The translations under genes were made by a program, and so were the position numbers. Positions 2,617 through 58,231 of a DNA stretch of 64,000 nucleotides are shown here, one piece after another. How positions within the stretch are numbered: the stretch's first letter is position 1; every line of letters begins with the position of its first letter. A model generated the notes under the pieces. That model did not search any database. It worked only from the letters and a program-made list of their open reading frames with translations, and was not told where the DNA came from. Source of the stretch: Candidatus Fermentithermobacillaceae bacterium (GTDB lineage: Bacteria; Bacillota; Sulfobacillia; Fermentithermobacillales; DUSS01); NCBI GenBank assembly GCA_012842495.1, contig DUSS01000009.1:98646-162645 (forward strand). Reading direction: 5' to 3'.

Positions 2617-3987
2617 TTAATGGCATCGAACGGCCCTCGCTATGAAGAACCCGTCTGTTCCATGAACATGTGGCAACAAAAGAACGGTTCCCGGCCCGGT
2701 CGAAAGCCGGTATCTCGGTTCTGGAGGAACTTCGTCCTTGAACATGCTGGCCGGAAGGAAGGGTCGCGGGTCCGAGGGAGAGAATTCGGGATGATCTTCA
2801 AGAAACTCCGAGAAAACCCCCTGGTTTTCTTCCTCCGTGAGCGTGCATGTGCTGTAAACCAGTACTCCACCGGGTTTTACCAAAGGCGCAACAGCATTCA
2901 GGATCTTTTTCTGGATATCCGTCATCGCGCTTACGTCTTTTTCTCTGCGACGCCAGCGCAGATCCGCACGGCGTCTCAAAACTCCCAATCCGGTGCAAGG
3001 CGCATCCACCAGCACACGGTCGAACGGCCCCTCGAATTTCCCTGCGACGCTTCCCAGGTCAGTCACGTCCATGTAGACGATTTGAATGTTTCGTAAACCA
3101 AGCCTCGTTACCGAATGCCTGAGAAGGCCCAGTCCTTCTTCGTGCTTGTCGGTAGCCACGACCAGCCCTCTGTCCCCCATGAGTTCGGCCAGGTGTGTGG
3201 TTTTTCCGCCGGGCGCCGCGCACGCATCCCAGACCACTTCGCCAGGTTGCGGATCGACCACGAGCGACACGGCCATAGCCCCTTCGTCCTGGATGGAAAA
3301 CAAACCATCGTGATAACCGGGAAGATCCGTCACCGGTCCCGCTCTACTCACCTCGACGGCCATATCAAGGTACCTTCCGGGCCGGGCTTGTACCCCCGCT
3401 TTGCGCAACAGGTCAACGAGGGAATCCCGGGTCGTCTTCAGAACATTAGTCCGCAACGTTACGGGTGGCACCCTCTGATCGAAGGAAGCCAGGGCTAGAG
3501 CCCCCCTCTCGCCAAAGGTGTCTATGAACCGCCGGACTATCCACCTGGGATGGGAAAACCGCGTCTCGATGTAAGATTCCAGGTCCTCAATGGGAGGCAT
3601 CTCGATGTGCCCCGAGTGTTCCGCCACCCGCCTCAGCACCGCGTTAACCAGAGCTTTTTGACGGGAGGCTTTTCCGACTGCATCAACCGTGATCGAAACC
3701 GCTGCCGGCGCGGGCATACGAGTGAAGAGGATCTCATAGACTCCTAGCCGGAGCGCCTCCCTTACCCTGGTCTCCAATCGTTCCACGGGGTACCTTGACC
3801 ATGAGGCGATGACGCTATCCAGAACGTTCCGCCACCTCCAGGTCCCCATCACCAGCTCCTCACAGAGCGCGCGGTCGTCCGGGGGCAACGCCCGGAAGCT
3901 TTTGCCCTGAAAAGGGCTGGCCCGGAAAGCTCTTTTCTCTCCGATACAAAGAATATCGAGAGCGACTTTCCGGGCCGCCAGTCCCAT
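2617..3987 (-). CDS. rsmB: 16S rRNA (cytosine967-C5)-methyltransferase RsmB/Sun
   Basis: 456 aa; NusB-like N-terminus plus SAM-dependent m5C methyltransferase core (DACAAPGGKT, PCTG motifs). Confidence 0.85.
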   Translation of the reverse strand: MGLAARKVALDILCIGEKRAFRASPFQGKSFRALPPDDRALCEELVMGTWRWRNVLDSVIASWSRYPVERLETRVREALRLGVYEILFTRMPAPAAVSITVDAVGKASRQKALVNAVLRRVAEHSGHIEMPPIEDLESYIETRFSHPRWIVRRFIDTFGERGALALASFDQRVPPVTLRTNVLKTTRDSLVDLLRKAGVQARPGRYLDMAVEVSRAGPVTDLPGYHDGLFSIQDEGAMAVSLVVDPQPGEVVWDACAAPGGKTTHLAELMGDRGLVVATDKHEEGLGLLRHSVTRLGLRNIQIVYMDVTDLGSVAGKFEGPFDRVLVDAPCTGLGVLRRRADLRWRRREKDVSAMTDIQKKILNAVAPLVKPGGVLVYSTCTLTEEENQGVFSEFLEDHPEFSPSDPRPFLPASMFKDEVPPEPRYRLSTGPGTVLLLPHVHGTDGFFIARAVRCH

Positions 3988-46200: not shown

Positions 46201-47394
46201 TTGTTCAACATCATCATGGCTGGCTTAACCAGTCTTTTCACCGATATCTCTACCGAAATGGTCTACCCTCTTTTACCCATGTTCCTCACTACAACGCTGG
46301 GAGCAACCCCGGCCATCGTGGGAATCATCGAGGGTATTGCCGAGAGCGTCGCCAGCATTTTGAAGGTATTTTCCGGAGCCCTGTCTGACAAACTCGGAAG
46401 ACGCAAACCCCTTGCCATCGGCGGTTACTCCTTATCCGTTTTGGGAAAGATTTTGCTTTTCCTGGCCGGGTCGTGGCCCGTTGTACTCATCGGGCGCGTG
46501 GTCGACAGGTTGGGAAAGGGCATCCGCACCGCACCCCGGGACGCTCTCATAGCCGAGTCTTCGGAGGAAGGGAAGAGAGGCGCTGCCTTCGGGTTGCACC
46601 GGTTCATGGACACTTTCGGCGCCAGCGCTGGAATCATCCTCGCTTACTACTTTCTCACCGCATATAAAGGTGACTACAAGAGCGTTTTCCTCTACTCGAT
46701 CGTCCCTGCAGTGCTCGGGGTGGCATTTCTCTTCTTCGTCCAGGAAAGAGCGCAAGGTCGCTCCAGTGAGCCTTCTGCCGCGCGAACCGGTGATTTCTCG
46801 GCCGCCAGACCTCGTCGCCACGTCAATCTCCTCGATTGGTCCAAACTTGATCCGCGGCTGAAATCTTTTCTCCTGGTGGTGTTCTTGTTCACGCTCGGGA
46901 ATTCGTCGAACCAGTTTCTACTGTTAAGAGCCGGGAACCTCGGGTTTGAGCCAGCAGCGGTGATCCTCCTGTACCTCACCTACAACTTAGTCTACACCTT
47001 GGTTTCCTACCCGGCGGGCAGACTTTCTGACCGCATTGGACGACGCACCCTTCTCGTTCTGGGATACCTGGCTTACGGCATTGTGTATCTCGGATTTGCG
47101 CTGGCCACCAAAGCCTCGACGTTGTGGTATCTGTTTGCAGCTTACGGAATCTACATCGGGTTTACGGAGGGCGTGGAAAAGGCGCTGGTCGCCGACATAG
47201 CACCGCCAGATCAACGGGCAACGGTTATCGGGCTCCATGCCACCCTGGTGGGCATAGGCTTGCTTCCCGCTTCGGCGCTGGCCGGATTCCTCTGGAATAC
47301 GCTGGGTCCGCGTGCTCCTTTCTTCTTCGGAGGCGCTACCGGCGTAGCAGCTGCGCTCGGGCTCAGCTGGGTGCTGCGGGAAAACAGGCCGTAG
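46201..47394 (+). CDS. MFS transporter
   Basis: 397 aa, 12 predicted TM helices, MFS motif GALSDKLGRRKP. Confidence 0.8.
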   Translation: MFNIIMAGLTSLFTDISTEMVYPLLPMFLTTTLGATPAIVGIIEGIAESVASILKVFSGALSDKLGRRKPLAIGGYSLSVLGKILLFLAGSWPVVLIGRVVDRLGKGIRTAPRDALIAESSEEGKRGAAFGLHRFMDTFGASAGIILAYYFLTAYKGDYKSVFLYSIVPAVLGVAFLFFVQERAQGRSSEPSAARTGDFSAARPRRHVNLLDWSKLDPRLKSFLLVVFLFTLGNSSNQFLLLRAGNLGFEPAAVILLYLTYNLVYTLVSYPAGRLSDRIGRRTLLVLGYLAYGIVYLGFALATKASTLWYLFAAYGIYIGFTEGVEKALVADIAPPDQRATVIGLHATLVGIGLLPASALAGFLWNTLGPRAPFFFGGATGVAAALGLSWVLRENRP

Positions 47395-52005: not shown

Positions 52006-52082
52006 TGGTGGCCCCAACGGGAGTCGAACCCGTGTTACCGCCTTGAAAGGGCGATGTCTTAACCACTTGACCATGGGGCCAC
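52006..52082 (-). tRNA. tRNA-Glu (anticodon UUC)
   Basis: rc: GTGGCCCCATGGTCAAGTGGTTAAGACATCGCCCTTTCAAGGCGGTAACACGGGTTCGACTCCCGTTGGGGCCACCA. Cloverleaf intact, anticodon loop CTTTCAA. Confidence 0.85.
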
Positions 52083-52083
52083 C

Positions 52084-52158
52084 TGGTGCGCCCGGTGTGC
52101 ATCGAACACACGACCAACCGGTTATGAGCCGGCCGCTCTGCCGCTGAGCTACGGGCGC
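52084..52158 (-). tRNA. tRNA with CAU anticodon (Met; a lysidine-modified Ile2 cannot be excluded)
   Basis: rc: GCGCCCGTAGCTCAGCGGCAGAGCGGCCGGCTCATAACCGGTTGGTCGTGTGTTCGATGCACACCGGGCGCACCA. Confidence 0.75.
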
Positions 52159-52164
52159 AATTAA

Positions 52165-52241
52165 TGGCTCCTCGAGCAGGACTCGAACCTGCAACCCTCC
52201 GGTTAACAGCCGGATGCTCTGCCATTGAGCTATCGAGGAGC
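52165..52241 (-). tRNA. tRNA-Asn (anticodon GUU)
   Basis: rc: GCTCCTCGATAGCTCAATGGCAGAGCATCCGGCTGTTAACCGGAGGGTTGCAGGTTCGAGTCCTGCTCGAGGAGCCA. Confidence 0.85.
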
Positions 52242-52292: not shown

Positions 52293-54620
52293 CTAAGCCG
52301 CGTCTATTCTTACTAAGGGTACCGCTTCCGGCGCGCCGGCCTGCGCCGGCGCGGCCACCGCAATTGTAGCCGCTTCCCAGCGACCCGCACCCCCCGGTTC
52401 ACCTTCCAACTCGACCCCCGGGACTTCCCCGGCGCCGGCTCGCAGCTTGTTTCGCTTGCCTTCCCCGCTCAATACCGCTTTTTCCGCGAAAAAAGTATCT
52501 CGCCCAGCAGAGCTATAAGGGTACCCCCCCCCCCGTTTGGCAATATCTGCCATCTCTTCAGCCGGTATCCTCAAAAACGCCTCAACCACCCGCGGATCAA
52601 ATTGCCTACCGGCACACCGCCGCAACTCTTGTCTGGCCGCCTTGGCAGTAAGAGCCCGCCGGTACGGCCTGGCCGACGTCATCGCATCGTAAGCATCCGC
52701 TACCCGGATGATCCGCGCCAGGAGCGGGATCTCTTCCCCCACCAGGCCCGCCGGATAACCGCCACCACAGTAATCTTCGTGGTGGTGCCGCACCGCTTCG
52801 ATCACCGCCCCCGGAAACCTGGCCGGCTCGAGAATCCTCGCCCCCACCACAGGGTGACCCCGCACCTCCTTCCGTTCTTCATCGTCGAGATACCCCGGCT
52901 TGAGCAAGATGCTTTCCCGCACGCCAATCTTTCCCAAATCGTGCAACAGTCCGGCCAGGTACACCTGCTCCTGCTCATCGGCACTAAGCCCCAGCAGCCT
53001 GGCGCACGACCGCGCCCACCGCGCCACTCGCAGGGAGTGCCCCCGCGTGTAAACATCCCTAGCCTCCAGGGCCGCCGCCAGTGCCCGCACGGCACTCAGG
53101 TAGTATTCCCGAAGCGACGAGTACAGCCGGGCGTTTTCCAGCGCCAGCCCGGTCTGGCACGCAACGATCGCCAGGTACCCGACATCTTCCTCGCTCCACC
53201 GCCGCGGTGCGGGGGAGTAAATCTTAAGCGTGCCGAGAATCTTTTCACCCGCCCGTACCGGCACCACGGCCACCGCACGCACTTCAGCCGAGTAGTATGG
53301 GAGGTGCATGCCCGGCTCGCTGTCGCTCACGTCTTCTACGACCACCGGTTCTCCCGACTCCAGCACCTTCCCCAGCAGGGTGCCCTCAGGCCGGACGCGC
53401 CCGGCCCTGGCCCGCAGCTCCGCACCCATACCCAGGCTCCCTCTCAGGACCAGCTCGCCCGTCTCCTCATCAAGTAGCCGCAGGGCACACCTCTCTGCCC
53501 CCAGGACATCCCGGACGCTCGCCAGGGCCGACTCCACCACAACATCCACGTTCAGGCTGCCCGACACCACCCGCCCCACTTCGATCAGCCGTTCCAGCAT
53601 GGCCGCCCTTAGCTGCAGCTCGCGGAAAAGGCGGGCATTCTCAAGCGCAAGCCCCAGGCTCGTGCCCAACGTGGTAAGGAAAGCGGTCTCGTCTTCGGCA
53701 AAACCCGCCCCTTCCGGTCTGCCCGCTATGGTCAGCACCCCTGTTACCCTGGCCCCAACCATCAGGGGTAAGACTACCGCAGGCCGCCTCTCTTCGGGCG
53801 TGCCACTTCCGGGCCGGCCGTCAAAATGAGCGGCGCGCGCCTCCCGCTCAACCGCGGCAACCACTTCGCCCGGCGGTACCACGCGGAACTCGTCACGGGA
53901 CTCCACAGCGGCCGCCACTTCGGCGCCCGAGAGCCCCAACGCCTGAGGAAGCATCACCACCGATCCGCTGGTGGCACCCGTCAACTCCAACACCGACTGC
54001 AGGGCCCGCCGGGCCACTTCAGCTATCTCGAGGCTACCGGAAACGGTCTGGCCGAACTCAAACAGAGCGGCAAGCTCACCCACCTTCCTGCCGAGTTCCT
54101 GCTTCGCGTAAAGCAGCTGAGCCACCATCTCCGTTAGGTTCCGTACCACCGCCATAACCGCCCGGAGCCGCTCTTCCGTCCAGACCGGCACCACCCCGGC
54201 CGCCTCAAGGAGCTTTTCCGGATCTATGCCCGTTTCCCGGGCCAGTTGCATCACCGTCTCCTCCGGGAGCGGTCGCACGGCCACGTTGCCTCCCAGCACG
54301 ACCGCTACCGTTTCTCCGGACACCCGCAGGGGAACCGCCAGATGCATCAGCCCAGCATGGCAGGTATGAAGGATCTCCTCCCCGACAGCCGCAGCAGCCT
54401 CCGCAGAGGCCACGCGAGAAGCCGCGCACCTGGCCCGCGCTTCGGGATTGGCACCGAGCATGGCGCAGAAGGGACACAGGTTGGACGGCTCGGTCAGGGG
54501 ACGGCCGTCCGGGTATGCGAGCATAACCGCCAGTCCCAGGGCCCGGCTCATGCTCTCCTGAAGTTCGTGTAAACCTATCTGTCTGAGCTCTTCGTAGAAC
54601 GCGGACTTTTCCTTAAGCAT
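52293..54620 (-). CDS. PocR-like sensor + tandem GAF domains + HD-GYP phosphodiesterase
   Basis: N-terminal Cys/His-containing PocR-like region (CPFCAML...HTCHAGL), three GAF-like segments, and a C-terminal HD-GYP (LLHDLGK...HHEDYCGGGYP). The last ~70 codons are low-complexity and follow a G11 run. Confidence 0.75.
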   Translation of the reverse strand: MLKEKSAFYEELRQIGLHELQESMSRALGLAVMLAYPDGRPLTEPSNLCPFCAMLGANPEARARCAASRVASAEAAAAVGEEILHTCHAGLMHLAVPLRVSGETVAVVLGGNVAVRPLPEETVMQLARETGIDPEKLLEAAGVVPVWTEERLRAVMAVVRNLTEMVAQLLYAKQELGRKVGELAALFEFGQTVSGSLEIAEVARRALQSVLELTGATSGSVVMLPQALGLSGAEVAAAVESRDEFRVVPPGEVVAAVEREARAAHFDGRPGSGTPEERRPAVVLPLMVGARVTGVLTIAGRPEGAGFAEDETAFLTTLGTSLGLALENARLFRELQLRAAMLERLIEVGRVVSGSLNVDVVVESALASVRDVLGAERCALRLLDEETGELVLRGSLGMGAELRARAGRVRPEGTLLGKVLESGEPVVVEDVSDSEPGMHLPYYSAEVRAVAVVPVRAGEKILGTLKIYSPAPRRWSEEDVGYLAIVACQTGLALENARLYSSLREYYLSAVRALAAALEARDVYTRGHSLRVARWARSCARLLGLSADEQEQVYLAGLLHDLGKIGVRESILLKPGYLDDEERKEVRGHPVVGARILEPARFPGAVIEAVRHHHEDYCGGGYPAGLVGEEIPLLARIIRVADAYDAMTSARPYRRALTAKAARQELRRCAGRQFDPRVVEAFLRIPAEEMADIAKRGGGYPYSSAGRDTFFAEKAVLSGEGKRNKLRAGAGEVPGVELEGEPGGAGRWEAATIAVAAPAQAGAPEAVPLVRIDAA
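52524..52534. repeat. C11/G11 homopolymer tract inside the 3' end of the HD-GYP gene
   Basis: gtaCCCCCCCCCCCgtttgg on the plus strand, encoding the GGG of the GGGYP motif on the minus strand. Confidence 0.8.
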
Positions 54621-54736: not shown

Positions 54737-55690
54737 TTACCCAATCCTGTTTTCCATCTTAAGCCGTCCCTGAATCCCGGGCTTACGCGAGCCCTCTTGG
54801 AGAATAGAAACATCTCCCCGGGCCATCGCCCGATGCTCGGCCCACAGAAACCCCGCGGCAGCCCGCCAGCCGCCGGAGGTCCGGCCTGTCCGCAGCCGGA
54901 GCAGTTCCGGCGACCCTGCCTGTACCAAGTCGGCTCTCAGGAGTTCTCTCAAGCGCGGGTCTCTTAGACTCAGTGGTATGTTGGGACGAACCTCAACGCA
55001 CGAAGCATCTCGGGCGATCCTTTCGACCAGTTCCCGAACAGACCCCAGTTCACCGGCGGGCACGAACGTCGGACTCGTCGCCAGCGTGGTCAGGGCTACC
55101 GTGCTGTTGGGCATGTTGAAATACCCCAGGGGCACGGCCTGAAACCGCACTTTACGCCGGCGGACTGCGATACCGCGTCCCGCCTCAAACCGACCGGGGT
55201 GCCCATCCGCGGTACCAACTACGTTTTCTTCACCCCGTAAGACCGCGTTGCATTCTGGAGCTCGACTGCGTCGAACACGAACTTCGTAGCTTTCTCCACC
55301 GAAAAAGGGGATGTCCCACTTCGTCCACTCGCCGCTTCCCGGAAGCCAGTCGGGCATCACCCACACAACCTTCGAGAACATGCGCTCCTCCAGCGCCCTT
55401 CTGAGATAGTTCCCGCAGTGCAAAGACCAGGAAAAAGTATCGTAGAGATCGGAGTGAGCATCTACGTGAATCAGGGTATCCGAATGCGCCCCCCACTCCT
55501 TCCACACGAAGTAGGCTTCCTTGTGGTCGGTGAAGAGCGCAACAGGGCTTCCTTTCCATTTCAAGCCGGCTGCTTTGAGGTTTTTCAGGAGATCCTCCGG
55601 CCTTATCCAGAGCCTTTGTTTTATCAGCGTATTTCCGCTGGTTCTGGGTTTGAACATGAAATCCGCGTCGATATCGAGGAATACGGCCAT
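54737..55690 (-). CDS. UPF0489 family protein (arginase/deacetylase-like fold)
   Basis: MAVFLDIDADF... and LIHVDAHSDLYD motifs of the UPF0489 family. Confidence 0.6.
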   Translation of the reverse strand: MAVFLDIDADFMFKPRTSGNTLIKQRLWIRPEDLLKNLKAAGLKWKGSPVALFTDHKEAYFVWKEWGAHSDTLIHVDAHSDLYDTFSWSLHCGNYLRRALEERMFSKVVWVMPDWLPGSGEWTKWDIPFFGGESYEVRVRRSRAPECNAVLRGEENVVGTADGHPGRFEAGRGIAVRRRKVRFQAVPLGYFNMPNSTVALTTLATSPTFVPAGELGSVRELVERIARDASCVEVRPNIPLSLRDPRLRELLRADLVQAGSPELLRLRTGRTSGGWRAAAGFLWAEHRAMARGDVSILQEGSRKPGIQGRLKMENRIG

Positions 55691-55839
55691 TTAAACCACC
55701 CTCGATATATCCAGCACCGCCTCTCCCTGAATTTAACCTCTCTTCAACCGTAAAAGAGCTTCGTTGGCTTCCTCAAGGGGAAATACCTCCGTCGAAACCT
55801 TTACGGGTATTTCCGCCGCCAACCGTATAAATTCCCGGA
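55691..55839 (-). pseudogene. duplicated 3'-terminal fragment (~45 codons) of the alcohol dehydrogenase gene
   Basis: 55710-55839 is ~97% identical to 57231-57359, the last codons of ADH 57212..58231 (...REFIRLAAEIPVKVSTEVFPLEEANEALLRLKR...). It ends in its own stop codon abutting the UPF0489 start. Confidence 0.7.
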
Positions 55840-55902
55840 ACCGCCTAATGGAAAAATGGTTCTATCGGGAAAACCTCGCGGACCTTGGCACTGTCCTGCC
55901 GT

Positions 55903-56346
55903 TTATGCGCGATCACTCGTTCTTGACCCAAGACCTTCGCCTTCGGCGGCTGCGCGCAGCCTTTCATCGAACGTAAGGATCTTCAACTCCGGGATCTCCT
56001 TTTGGAGAGTCTTGGCTGCCGCCAAATGCCACAAGTCCGCACCTCGAAGGGGCCACGCACCGGCCAAGTCCTTGAACCTACCGTAGTCAGGCAACACGTA
56101 AATCCGCCGCCAGGGGCCTTCTTCCAGAGTCTCGTATGCCGCCTTCAACAGCACCTCTCCCAGGCATCCCTCCCGCTTCATTCTGGATATCACCGCACAA
56201 GTTTCAGCCCAGCCCAACGAAGACACGAGATGAACACCGGGTAGCTCTAGTTGTGCACGCGCCTCTTCGCTGTGAGAATCCCTAAACAGCACGGACAGGA
56301 TTGCTGAAGCATCCCAGTAGATAGCTGCAGGTTGCTTTTGACTCAT
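55903..56346 (-). CDS. vapC: PIN-domain toxin (VapC-like)
   Basis: ~147 aa from MSQKQPAAIYWDASAIL...; acidic PIN residues in the expected positions. The start overlaps the antitoxin stop (ATGA). Confidence 0.65.
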   Translation of the reverse strand: MSQKQPAAIYWDASAILSVLFRDSHSEEARAQLELPGVHLVSSLGWAETCAVISRMKREGCLGEVLLKAAYETLEEGPWRRIYVLPDYGRFKDLAGAWPLRGADLWHLAAAKTLQKEIPELKILTFDERLRAAAEGEGLGSRTSDRA

Positions 56347-56630
56347 CCCTCGCGATCCTCCCGTAAGAACCGTTGCGCCAGGTCGCCTTCCACGGGAAAC
56401 GGAGGCGGGATCCTGCTGGCTTTGTCGCCTTTGGCAGGCTCGATCCACCCTCTCCGCTCGAGCGCGGCAAGCCTATCCTCCAGTGACAGAGCCGAGGGAG
56501 ATACTCTGGTAATCTTGGCGACAGGGCGTCCTCTATCGGTTATGATGACCTCGGCGCCAGCTGCAACTTGGTCCAGAATCCGGCTCAAGTTAATCTTGGC
56601 TTCCTTGATCCCAACTGTGATATCGTGCAT
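56343..56630 (-). CDS. Phd/YefM-family antitoxin
   Basis: 95 aa; MHDITVGIKEAKINLSRILDQVAAGAEVIITDRGRPVAKI is the Phd/YefM N-terminal fold signature. Confidence 0.7.
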   Translation of the reverse strand: MHDITVGIKEAKINLSRILDQVAAGAEVIITDRGRPVAKITRVSPSALSLEDRLAALERRGWIEPAKGDKASRIPPPFPVEGDLAQRFLREDREG

Positions 56631-56761
56631 ACCCGCACCTCCCGGTTTGGGTACTATTATGATTACATTAAGATGTTACTACAGTGGTCACATAGAGTCA
56701 AGTTGTTGTACTGGGTCGGTCTTGTTAGTAGTCTTTCGGCCCGATGGTCTCCTTCGACTAG

Positions 56762-57054
56762 ACCAGCGTTAGGGGCGGCGTCATCCTGTGCTACTCGCGG
56801 GAAGGCAGCACCGGCCCAGCTTTCACGGACCTCCAGGGCTACGACTGGGCCCGCGACTCTATCGAGCTTCTCGCTTCGCAGGGCATTCTGAAGGGTGTAG
56901 GGGAAGGCCGTTTTGAACCCGGAGGTGTCGTTACGCGCGAGCAGTTTGCGGCACTCGTGGAGCGCCTATTCACGCTCAGGCCGCAGTGCTGCTCGACCAG
57001 GTGCGGGCGAGATTCCAAGACTACCTGTCAGTCAAGCAACCCGAGGCCTTTGTA
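56762..57054 (+). pseudogene. remnant of an S-layer homology (SLH) domain protein (no start codon, truncated)
   Basis: The open frame encodes ...FTDLQGYDWARDSIELLASQGILKGVGEGRFEPGGVVTREQFAALVERLF..., one complete SLH motif, then runs into nonsense and a stop. Confidence 0.55.
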
Positions 57055-57211
57055 GTCCCTGCCGAATACCTTGGTAAAGGAATCGCTTCGGCCCCTCCGT
57101 CCGTTTTCGATAATGAATTGGTTTTGACTACCTGGTGGAATGTGCACCGATGCAGATGCTGAAGGCGGGTTTGCGTTTTGCTCCCTTCGAGGCATTCATC
57201 GCGCCATCTCT

Positions 57212-58231
57212 CTATACTACTCGTGCTACCTCCAGCACCGCCTCTCCCTGAATTTGAGCTCTCTTCAATCGTAAAAGAGCTTCGTTGGCTTCCTCAAGGG
57301 GAAATACCTCCGTCGAAACCTTTACGGGTATTTCCGCCGCCAACCGTATAAATTCCCGGGCATCTTCTCGTGTGGCGTTGGCCACGCTTTTCACGGACTT
57401 TTCCCAATACAGAAGGGAGTAATCGAACGCAGGAACCCCATCGAGGTGTACCGCGTTTACCGCGAGCGTACCGCCTTTTTTCAAAGCCCTGAGAGCTGCG
57501 GGGATGACTGAACCCGCAGGCGCAAAACTCACCGCCGCATCGCACGAACCCGCCGGTCCGTCCTCTGCTCTGCCCGCCCAGCTAGCGCCGAGTTCGCGGG
57601 CTAGATTCTGGTGCGCTACGCTCCTGGTGAAAACGAGGACGTCACATCCCCAGTGACGTGCCACCTGAATCGCCAGGTGCGCCGAGGCTCCAAATCCGAA
57701 CAGCCCCACCGTATCCCCGGGTTTCACCCCGGCTATTTTCAACGACCGGTATCCGATGATCCCGGCGCACAGAAGGGGTGCCGCATCCAGGTCGGAAAAG
57801 GCTGGAGGCAGCTGGATCACAAAGTCCTTTCTGGCAATGACGTACTCGGCGTAGCCCCCATTGTAGGAATAGCCCGTAAACTGTATTCTCTCGCACAGGT
57901 TCTCTTGGCCTTTTAGGCAAAATGAGCACTGGCCGCAAGCGCTGTAAAGCCAGGGCAAGCCTACCCGGTCACCAACCCTGACCCCGGAGTCTGCGTTATT
58001 CGGGGCGTCACCCACGGCGTCAACCACGCCTACGATCTGGTGCCCCGGTACGAGGGGTAAACGGACCGGGGGTAGCTCACCCTCGACGATATGGAGATCG
58101 GTGCGGCATACGCCGCAAAACCGCACTTTGATGCGGACTTCTCCCGGCCCTGGGACGGGCTCGGGGAGGTCTTCGAGGGAAAGAGGCCGGCTTTCCACCG
58201 GCGCCGGCCTACGCAAAACCATCGCTTTCAT
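57212..58231 (-). CDS. adh: zinc-dependent medium-chain alcohol dehydrogenase
   Basis: 339 aa; GVCRTDLHIVEGE, GHQIVGVV, structural-zinc Cys cluster CGQCSFC, Rossmann fold GLFGFGASAH. Confidence 0.85.
   Translation of the reverse strand: MKAMVLRRPAPVESRPLSLEDLPEPVPGPGEVRIKVRFCGVCRTDLHIVEGELPPVRLPLVPGHQIVGVVDAVGDAPNNADSGVRVGDRVGLPWLYSACGQCSFCLKGQENLCERIQFTGYSYNGGYAEYVIARKDFVIQLPPAFSDLDAAPLLCAGIIGYRSLKIAGVKPGDTVGLFGFGASAHLAIQVARHWGCDVLVFTRSVAHQNLARELGASWAGRAEDGPAGSCDAAVSFAPAGSVIPAALRALKKGGTLAVNAVHLDGVPAFDYSLLYWEKSVKSVANATREDAREFIRLAAEIPVKVSTEVFPLEEANEALLRLKRAQIQGEAVLEVARVV

Follow-up and report, generated by a model that had tools for sequence, protein, structure and literature searches.

The window, by which we mean the whole stretch of 64,000 nucleotides that was analyzed, carries the gene row purL-HAD-ADH-ORF317, in which HAD encodes a HAD-family hydrolase and ADH a zinc-dependent alcohol dehydrogenase. 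Between ADH and ORF317 lie a toxin-antitoxin (TA) pair, a remnant of an S-layer-homology (SLH) protein gene, a short piece of HAD, and a second copy of the ADH 3' end (Table 1). The ADH protein matches the Pfam models ADH_N (E value of 8e-31) and ADH_zinc_N (1e-10) and scores 346.7 bits against TIGR02822, for which the cutoff is 283.5. Gene callers choose an internal start, which gives a protein of 328 aa instead of 339 aa, and an exact look-up of the 339-aa form returned no match because the callers took this later start. ADH is 90% identical in amino acid sequence to the ADH of a relative with an empty site (locus L007, which is the same as L014); a genome scan with ADH retrieved this relative again, and all the other ADHs showed identities of 61% or less. 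ORF317 shows a weak, sub-threshold match to the arginase family and has a DAHSD motif.

Table 1. Features of the ADH-ORF317 region, with positions counted from the first nucleotide of the window
Feature	Position	Strand	Basis or remark
ORF317, conserved partner downstream of ADH	54737..55690	-	Start abuts orphan ADH stop; 16 homologs
Left repeat copy, native ADH 3' end, now displaced (pseudogene fragment)	55691..55838	-	Translation, alignment, tblastn
HAD-family hydrolase gene debris (~HAD nt 449-491)	55839..55881	-	Alignments; intact copy of the gene lies upstream of ADH
VapC-type PIN-domain toxin gene, 147 aa	55903..56346	-	PF01850
Phd/YefM-family antitoxin gene, 95 aa	56343..56630	-	PF02604, TIGR01552
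TA upstream region with promoter-like site	56631..56772	-	Promoter scan, homology limits
SLH protein gene remnant, 5'-truncated, frameshifted	56774..57162	+	Convergent with ADH; translations, tblastn, PF00395
Spacer from ADH stop to end of SLH remnant, 49 nt	57163..57211		Homology limits
Right repeat copy, the working ADH 3' end	57212..57359	-	Repeat search and alignment
Zinc-dependent alcohol dehydrogenase gene (ADH), functional, 339 aa	57212..58231	-	ORF, Pfam, TIGR02822

The toxin matches PF01850 with an E value of 3.2e-9 (37.9 bits; cutoff, 23.6), and the acidic quartet of the PIN domain (D12, E48, D104, and D127) is invariant in 16 homologs. A total of 613 VapC homologs were found, the closest being 93, 91, and 87% identical, and no NCBIfam equivalog model matched the toxin. 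The antitoxin matches PF02604 (6.6e-11) and TIGR01552 (2e-9), and its gene is located directly upstream of the toxin gene, with the Phd stop codon overlapping the VapC start by 4 nt (ATGA). The promoter scan found a promoter-like site, TTGACT-17-TAACAT, at 56701-56673. The two genes are kept together in L094 to L098, and the same pair, at 85 to 92% nucleotide identity, is present in unrelated contexts in L096 to L099, where the homology covers the promoter and the genes only. The left limit of the homology to the pair lies at 56772 for L094 and L095, at 56725 for L096, and at 56702 for L097 and L098, and no flanking duplications were found around the pair in its other contexts (L096 and L097). 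The small antitoxin gene in first position, the overlap, the PIN quartet, and the pair's own promoter-like site are shared with chromosomal VapC/Phd-YefM modules, as are the patchy distribution and the occurrence of the same pair in unrelated contexts. The pair looks like an intact type II module and, as judged from its genes, appears to have nothing unusual in the module itself; it may be active and may now help to keep the insert in place.

The SLH remnant encodes a single SLH motif (PF00395; E value of 3.4e-11) on the plus strand at 56774-56992. Its frame changes near 56970-56990, tblastn shows two frames, and the stop codon is at 57160-57162; other stop codons are present just upstream and there is no ATG, GTG, or TTG start, and the remnant is thus not an intact ORF. 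In a homolog search corrected for the frameshift, its sole database relative was its own 90-aa annotation (HHY34581.1), and an exhaustive search with the 64-aa C-terminal piece gave one weak, repetitive match to an unrelated surface protein of 1,926 aa (E value of 3e-4). The spacer that follows shows no homology with the spacers of the relatives, and the homology with L010 and L009 stops at the ADH stop codon or no more than 3 nt from it (57212 and 57209). In annotation terms, both the 90-aa "SLH protein" and the short ADH-like ORF of these metagenome-assembled genomes (MAGs) are therefore pseudogene debris.

The final 49 codons of the ADH gene are present twice in direct orientation, at 55691-55838 and 57212-57359. 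The two copies agree at 136 of 148 positions (12 mismatches), and the homology between them extends up to the stop codons. The repeat search returned 55692-55838 and 57213-57359 (147 nt, 93%) at a spacing of 1,521 nt, and the stretch between the two copies measures 1,373 bp. A reading made from the sequence alone, referred to below as the sequence-only reading, had given an identity of 126/129 for these segments, and blastn reproduces it, with precisely 3 mismatches in 129 nt (97.7%; 55710-55838 versus 57231-57359); of the coordinates in that reading, the start at 55710 and the segment 57231-57359 hold, but the end at 55839 is one base beyond the true end at 55838. The repeat is not a chance match, because a 51-nt core of it has exactly two occurrences in the 64 kb of the window, compared with 0 expected from shuffles. 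The mismatches between the left and right copies are polarized, with 0 in 90 nt and then 12 in 58 nt (Fisher P = 6e-6). On this distribution, simple drift after duplication is rejected, and the polarity marks a recombination breakpoint inside the shared homology.

The last 58 nt of the right copy form a tail designated type II, RAQIQGEAVLEVARVV-stop, which matches the ADH tails of L010 and L009, with the homology ending at the stop codon, and is unlike the tails of L007, L094, and the left copy. The tail of the left copy, designated type I, reads LDISRVV-stop, and its TAA runs straight into the ATG of ORF317. The translation of the left copy is RG-stop-IQGEAVLDISRVV-stop, with an in-frame nonsense codon at 55733-55735 that represents a CAA-to-TAA change, and in tblastn the copy covers ADH residues 281-328 (89.6%). 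Its TAAATG junction is identical to that of L007 and L008, and the tail LDI(S/T)(Q/R)VV-stop with TAAATG is common to the left copy, the L094 remnant, and L007. Because the left copy combines the L007-type tail with the TAAATG junction and the working ADH has the L009/L010-type tail, the orphan left copy is the native ADH end, and the functional ADH now bears a replacement tail. A deletion between the repeats would truncate ADH at the nonsense codon of the orphan copy. We also considered that an L010-like strain had supplied the terminal 300 nt of ADH, and this idea was dropped, because the L094 remnant is equally L010-like; for the same reason, the allele-specific part is limited to the last 58 nt or less.

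The HAD-ADH-ORF317 synteny is conserved in L007, L008, L009, L010, and L100, and these five loci from four related lineages (L007/L008, L009, L010, and L100) are empty sites that lack such an insert. In L007 and L008, ADH ends at the base before the ORF317 ATG, with a fused TAA-ATG, and in L009, L010, and L100 just 30 to 152 nt separate ADH from ORF317; the spacers of L009 and L010 contain degenerate extra copies of the ADH tail. A metagenome scan with an ORF317 profile found one further syntenic locus only (L100), and the more distant ORF317 homologs have no ADH upstream. A second lineage, represented by the MAG locus L094, has this TA pair in the corresponding position, and the HAD and ADH debris that comes after the pair is longer there than in the window. 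The L094 contig, DYEQ01000059 of GCA_020725645.1, ends in an RCC1 gene upstream of the TA pair, so that an intact ADH, if present, would lie beyond it. These empty sites, set against the filled orthologous site, together with the truncated and frameshifted SLH piece, support the proposal of the sequence-only reading that a TA module arrived at the 3' end of a gene by insertion or recombination, with pseudogene debris left behind, and the PF01850, PF02604, and PF00395 matches agree with its description of the insert as a PIN-toxin/Phd pair plus a start-less fragment with one SLH motif.

The HAD debris in the window (43 nt) matches HAD nt 475-491 of the window at 15 of 17 positions and was placed by a four-way alignment that included L094 and the HAD gene of L007. 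The L094 fragment extends the same HAD piece ~150 nt (87% over 136 nt, with an E value of 1e-33; 84.5% over 155 nt), and the order in L094 is the TA pair, HAD nt ~468-619, an internal ADH piece, the ADH 3' end, and TAAATG-ORF321. The joint between the TA pair and HAD' is common to the window and L094 and lies somewhere in 55882-55902, where the sequence is too diverged or eroded for its placement or for a microhomology search; at the HAD'/ADH' joint (55838/55839), no microhomology was seen. The HAD' debris in the window and the longer HAD and ADH debris in L094 indicate that the duplication spanned ~1.5 kb and two genes originally, not 148 bp. The boundary at 55838/55839 is thus secondary and more likely stems from a deletion that later joined HAD' to ADH'. 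On its left side, the TA pair adjoins different DNA in the two lineages, the SLH remnant in the window versus an RCC1-repeat gene in L094, and because of this difference at least two events are needed. Between the window and L094, identity at synonymous third positions reaches 0.91 for Phd and 0.87 for VapC, compared with 0.69 to 0.76 for GGT, M55, Amidase_6, and MFS; the filled allele is younger than the genome background. The locus is also mosaic between lineages, with identity jumping from ~85% to 95 to 97% in blocks.

We consider that the locus is best explained by a homology-anchored insertion that displaced the ADH 3' end and was followed by decay, a reading to which we assign a probability of roughly 60%. 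The ancestral state would be the one kept in L007, that is, an ADH with a type I tail and a stop codon fused (TAAATG) to the ORF317 start. Foreign DNA may have entered by recombination anchored in the HAD/ADH coding sequence of the host, either through single-crossover (Campbell-type) insertion of a HAD/ADH-homologous fragment or through homology-facilitated illegitimate recombination, and would have brought the self-contained Phd-VapC cassette with its own promoter. In the lineage of the window, the type II ADH tail would have become contiguous with the 3' end of the convergent SLH gene, the two being either co-imported or joined later. ADH would have remained intact via the substitute tail, and the original HAD'-ADH' segment would have been pushed downstream as a pseudogene, where it stayed attached to ORF317 and its ribosome-binding site. 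Later deletions may have trimmed the displaced copy to 43 nt of HAD' and 148 nt of ADH', with other pieces surviving in L094. The perfect 90-nt block could represent a crossover or gene-conversion tract, and the diverged 58-nt tails would be two alleles; should the duplication be older than the exchange of the window lineage with L094, the 0/90 mismatch count would require a later gene conversion, which we presume. A donor, in which an intact SLH gene or this TA pair would come after an ADH type II tail, was not found among the sequenced relatives. We infer both the exact recombination pathway and the succession of events given here as probable ones from the sequences compared.

It is unlikely that the locus is instead what is left of an integrase-driven element (a prophage or genomic island) that targeted the ADH 3' end and carried a surrogate end in its attP, in the manner of e14 and phage 21 at icd, with attL and attR as the two ADH ends, most of the element, integrase included, having been deleted, and the TA pair having been kept by addiction. 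Direct repeats from the ADH 3' end do flank the insert, the incoming tail keeps the gene intact and the native tail is displaced, and the spacers of L009 and L010, with their degenerate copies of the ADH tail, point to repeated events at the site. The geometry is the same as that of the pseudo-icd' of e14, of which 163 bp is left behind in Escherichia coli icd (PMC6379469). At both loci, the insert lies in the 3' end of a metabolic dehydrogenase gene, a slightly different incoming tail keeps the gene functional, and the original tail (~150 to 165 bp) persists as an orphan, a direct repeat on the other side of the insert. However, the locus here has no integrase or other phage gene, and the insert, only 1.37 kb in length, holds only Phd, VapC, and the SLH remnant. 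No integrase or transposase was found among the called genes ~10 kb on either side of the insert, in line with the earlier observation that none remains, and no recombinase was found among the called genes of L094. The insert DNA matched no plasmids or phages, VapC matched nothing in IMG/VR, and the only Rfam matches were three tRNAs, all outside the feature. In addition, the duplicated segment once reached ~1.5 kb into the HAD gene, over two genes and far beyond the typical length of an att site, and the TA pair is found elsewhere without ADH tails. A transposon target-site duplication was rejected, as the repeat is too long (148 nt), its mismatches are polarized, and it comes without a transposase or inverted repeats, none of the five inverted-repeat pairs being located at the insert ends.

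Also improbable is a history in which an internal tandem HAD'-ADH duplication came first, the SLH fragment and the TA cassette were captured at its junction, and the upstream tail was later swapped with an L010-like strain. The order of the remnant pieces in L094 follows that of the intact genes, the mosaic identity blocks imply that allelic exchange is frequent at the locus, and the short tandem tail copies in L009 and L010 could come from slippage-type duplication, all of which such a history would accommodate. It needs at least three events, however, whereas one homology-anchored import would cover both the new tail and the contiguous foreign DNA, and if a tandem duplication had extended beyond the ADH stop, the upstream ADH copy should be followed by some 5' sequence of ORF317, which is absent.

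Two samples that were assembled separately yielded contigs matching the window at 100% identity in this region. These ENA contigs come from assembly at k127, and because the longest exact run common to the two copies (90 nt) is shorter than k, single k-mers tie each unique flank to the copy-specific mismatches. Logan k=31 contigs break at 55778, as a real repeat predicts, a 1,491-nt Logan k=31 contig whose length matches 55809-57299 was seen in several samples, and HHY34578 and HHY34581 show the same gene order in the annotation of the NCBI MAG. An assembly artifact, in which two strains or loci would have been joined via shared ADH-end sequence with the duplication not on one molecule, is rejected as very improbable: the source is a metagenome and k=31 graphs are truly ambiguous at the 90-nt block, the alternative pairing being an empty site plus a 1,521-bp circle, but the k127 assemblies span this block, samples assembled apart agree, and another study provides independent evidence with L094, a MAG in which the TA pair is likewise followed by ADH debris and an ORF317 homolog.

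Homology-anchored displacement of a gene end has a counterpart in the rhs loci, CDI, and the T6SS effector-immunity clusters of Vibrio cholerae, in which 3'-end displacement with orphan arrays is proposed to occur by homology-facilitated illegitimate recombination (PMC5361080). As in those systems, a constant gene body has a new 3' end with linked foreign genes, the old end is orphaned downstream, there is no dedicated recombinase, and repeated events leave nested remnants, which at this locus are the two tails, left and right, together with the copies of the tail in the spacers of L009 and L010. Unlike in those systems, the tips here are equivalent ADH ends and not alternative toxin domains, and so serve no diversifying function, a classic type II TA pair with no relation to the host gene makes up the cargo, and the pathway is one that we infer from sequence as a probable one.

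The locus is a scar of horizontal gene transfer, clear but ordinary in kind, in an uncultured, thermophilic biogas-fermenter bacterium, Candidatus Fermentithermobacillaceae bacterium. Recombinase-free movement of chromosomal TA pairs is rarely documented at base-pair resolution, and the locus is a clean natural example, which combines an empty site, a filled site in two lineages, a displaced gene end, a recombination breakpoint, and a filled allele that is younger than its genome background. A more speculative reading, which we regard as quite unlikely, is that the ADH/ORF317 junction repeatedly takes in recombinase-free cassettes, formerly of other DNA and here this TA pair, which copy and displace the end of the host gene as they enter and leave nested tail remnants (in the window, in L094, and in the spacers of L009, L010, and L100), with the filled allele spreading between diverged lineages via flanking homology. 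If this were true and held generally, TA cassettes would have in 3'-end displacement a means of moving outside polymorphic-toxin loci.

A repeat search of the window aligned 55692-55838 with 57213-57359 (147 nt, 93% identity, spacing of 1521 nt), and blastn recovered the core described in the sequence-only reading (55710-55838 versus 57231-57359, 129 nt, 3 mismatches). On the minus strand, the homology extends to both stop codons, giving 148 nt with 12 mismatches and a longest exact run of 90 nt, and a 51-nt core has two occurrences in the window versus 0 expected by chance. The mismatches are polarized: the first 90 nt have none and all 12 fall in the last 58 (Fisher p = 6e-6), which rejects uniform drift between the copies and indicates a recombination or conversion boundary.

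Features of the ADH-ORF317 region (window numbering)
Feature	Positions	Strand	Remark
MFS transporter gene	46201-47391		
tRNA cluster	52006-52239	minus	Glu-TTC, Met-CAT, Asn-GTT
PocR-GAF-GAF-HD-GYP-type sensor gene	52293-54620	minus	775 aa
ORF317	54737-55690	minus	16 detectable homologues
Left (orphan) tail copy	55691-55838	minus	
VapC/PIN gene	55903-56346		inside insert
Phd/YefM antitoxin gene	56343-56630		overlaps VapC gene
Promoter-like site of TA pair	56701-56673		
SLH remnant	frame change near 56970-56990, end 57162	opposite TA pair	one SLH motif, no start codon
Right (functional) tail copy	57212-57359	minus	genuine ADH 3' end
Zinc alcohol dehydrogenase (ADH)	57212-58231	minus	339 aa

The duplication is real and not the assembly artefact that the sequence-only reading had asked to be checked. 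The window is 100% identical to separately assembled contigs of two samples, both belonging to a biogas-fermenter project; these are k127 assemblies, and since 127 exceeds the 90-nt shared run, single k-mers connect each unique flank with the bases that distinguish its copy. The Logan k=31 contigs break at the points expected of a true repeat: those of ORF317 stop at 55778, 30 nt beyond the last distinguishing base, and a 1491-nt contig, matching 55809-57299 in length, was seen again in six samples. The k=31 graph taken alone is also compatible with a 1,521-bp circle alongside an empty site, which may exist as a minor form. The same gene order is annotated in the NCBI MAG of the window's own organism, Candidatus Fermentithermobacillaceae.

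Related loci provide the empty sites for the proposed comparison with the filled window. In L007/L008 (isolate Bu31, GCA_014896535.1; ORF317 identity, 78%), the last base of ADH directly precedes the ATG of ORF317, its conserved downstream partner (TAAATG), and in L009, L010, and L100 (55-65%), the gap is only 30-152 nt. The TA pair and the SLH piece are absent from all of these loci, which indicates that the window carries an insertion.

The left copy translates as ...LKRG-stop-IQGEAVLDISRVV-stop, with its TAA fused to the ORF317 ATG, and agrees with the ADH end of L007 (...LKRGQIQGEAVLDITQVV-stop, TAAATG); the right copy ends in ...LKRAQIQGEAVLEVARVV-stop. In a six-way alignment, the left tail clusters with L007 and the remnant in L094, a second filled lineage (type I), and the right tail clusters with L010 and L009 (type II), its homology with L010 ending exactly at the stop codon. 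The tail grouping and the TAAATG match indicate that the orphan copy, which carries a CAA-to-TAA nonsense change at 55733-55735, is the original ADH end, displaced, and that the working gene ends in a substitute tail. The ADH proteins of L009 (8743-9930) and L010 (8664-9848) have a loop of 55-56 residues inserted after residue 74, in which Gly, Ala, and Thr are prominent by eye; those of the window and L007 lack it.

The ADH-ORF317 spacers of L009 (9931-10000), L010 (9849-10000), and L100 (2130-2178) are built from degenerate extra ADH-tail copies (matches of 26/30 and 27/38 in L010 and 22/25 in L009), with the type I motif CGCAGGTGGTTTAAATG at their ends. The junction has thus undergone repeated duplication in several lineages, and the evidence for this is all that is mildly unusual here. 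A 54-nt non-tail piece (L010:9849-9902) weakly matches window 56771-56798, where the SLH remnant has its truncated start; the match has an exact core of 13 nt and a local score of 30 versus a shuffle maximum of 29, and the piece could be a final vestige, in L010, of the DNA inserted in the window.

L094 (GCA_020725645.1) carries the nearest VapC homologue (93%). This contig runs from an RCC1-repeat gene end with debris through the TA pair as in the window (95% nucleotide identity to 56772-55839), a 150-nt internal piece of the upstream HAD hydrolase gene, a 65-nt internal piece of ADH, and the terminal 200 nt of ADH, ending in a type I tail, to TAAATG-ORF321. There, HAD homology starts ~20-40 nt or less from the VapC stop, and the same junction is found in the window, where 55839-55881 aligns with HAD nt ~449-491. 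These observations indicate that the displaced copy once spanned mid-HAD to the ADH end (~1.5 kb), and that the 55838/55839 boundary is more likely a later deletion joint between displaced HAD and ADH pieces than an insertion edge. Synonymous third-position identity between window and L094 is 0.91 for Phd and 0.87 for VapC versus 0.69-0.76 for four flanking housekeeping genes, and the locus is a mosaic of 95-97% identity blocks in an 85% background, indicating that the filled allele was exchanged between these lineages after their divergence. Across whole loci, L001 (equivalent to the window) and L094 share ~85% nucleotide identity over GGT, M55, Amidase_6, and MFS, with blocks at 91-97% (L001 13407-13696, 18944-20060, and 20060-20953), a mosaic that indicates frequent homologous exchange.

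The incoming tail sits on an intact ADH and the native tail is orphaned downstream. This layout is shared with e14 at icd (PMC6379469) and with "3'-end displacement", a recombinase-free route for which homology-facilitated illegitimate recombination (HFIR) has been proposed in rhs and T6SS effector-immunity arrays (PMC5361080). We favour homology-anchored import, Campbell-type or HFIR-type: foreign DNA would have entered by homology anchoring, the perfect 90-nt block would be the crossover or conversion tract, and deletions would have followed. The unlike left flanks of the TA pair (SLH remnant in the window, RCC1 in L094) indicate more than one event. A transposon, an integron, and a classical integrative element are all disfavoured: gene calls within ~10 kb and in L094 include no integrase or transposase, the insert ends lack inverted repeats, the insert has no match in plasmid, phage, and viral collections, and the duplicated segment was far longer than an att site.

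Three elements occupy the 1,373 bp between the copies, the two genes of the TA pair and the start-less SLH fragment read there initially. The PIN acidic residues D12, E48, D104, and D127 are invariant among 16 homologues. No terminator-like site was found between VapC and ORF317, so read-through into ORF317 is possible. The TA pair behaves as a cassette and also occurs at 85-92% nucleotide identity in unrelated contexts, adjoining TrpP and metallophosphoesterase genes (L096) or nucleotidyltransferase and HEPN genes (L097-L099), where homology is limited to a ~70-95-nt promoter region and the two genes, and no flanking duplications were found.

ORF317 and its homologues share invariant D..H.D-type motifs (HVDAHSD), match no Pfam family above threshold, and show a weak arginase-family match (E 9e-4); ORF317 may be an uncharacterised ureohydrolase-fold enzyme whose gene is regularly associated with HAD and ADH in this family. 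The downstream sensor gene encodes 572 aa in L007 (11070-12788), with one GAF region missing, and is absent from L094 (corresponding 2990-3420), making its position a further variable spot in this gene row. The three tRNA genes lie directly downstream of it, and Rfam Plastid-ycf2 matches opposite them are sub-threshold shadows of the tRNAs. Both the window and L094 have the MFS gene, which L007 lacks (between Amidase_6 and PCC).

The insertion or recombination first proposed is supported, and the evidence refines it in four respects: tail polarity, HAD debris, shared filled allele, and recombination breakpoint. ADH would retain its full length, with eight residues near the C-terminus changed relative to the orphan copy, and ORF317 would keep its Shine-Dalgarno sequence within the orphan tail and lose direct coupling to ADH. 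The locus is a well-resolved but ordinary horizontal-transfer scar. Deletion between the repeats would now truncate ADH by 14 residues, which, together with TA addiction, should stabilise the insert.
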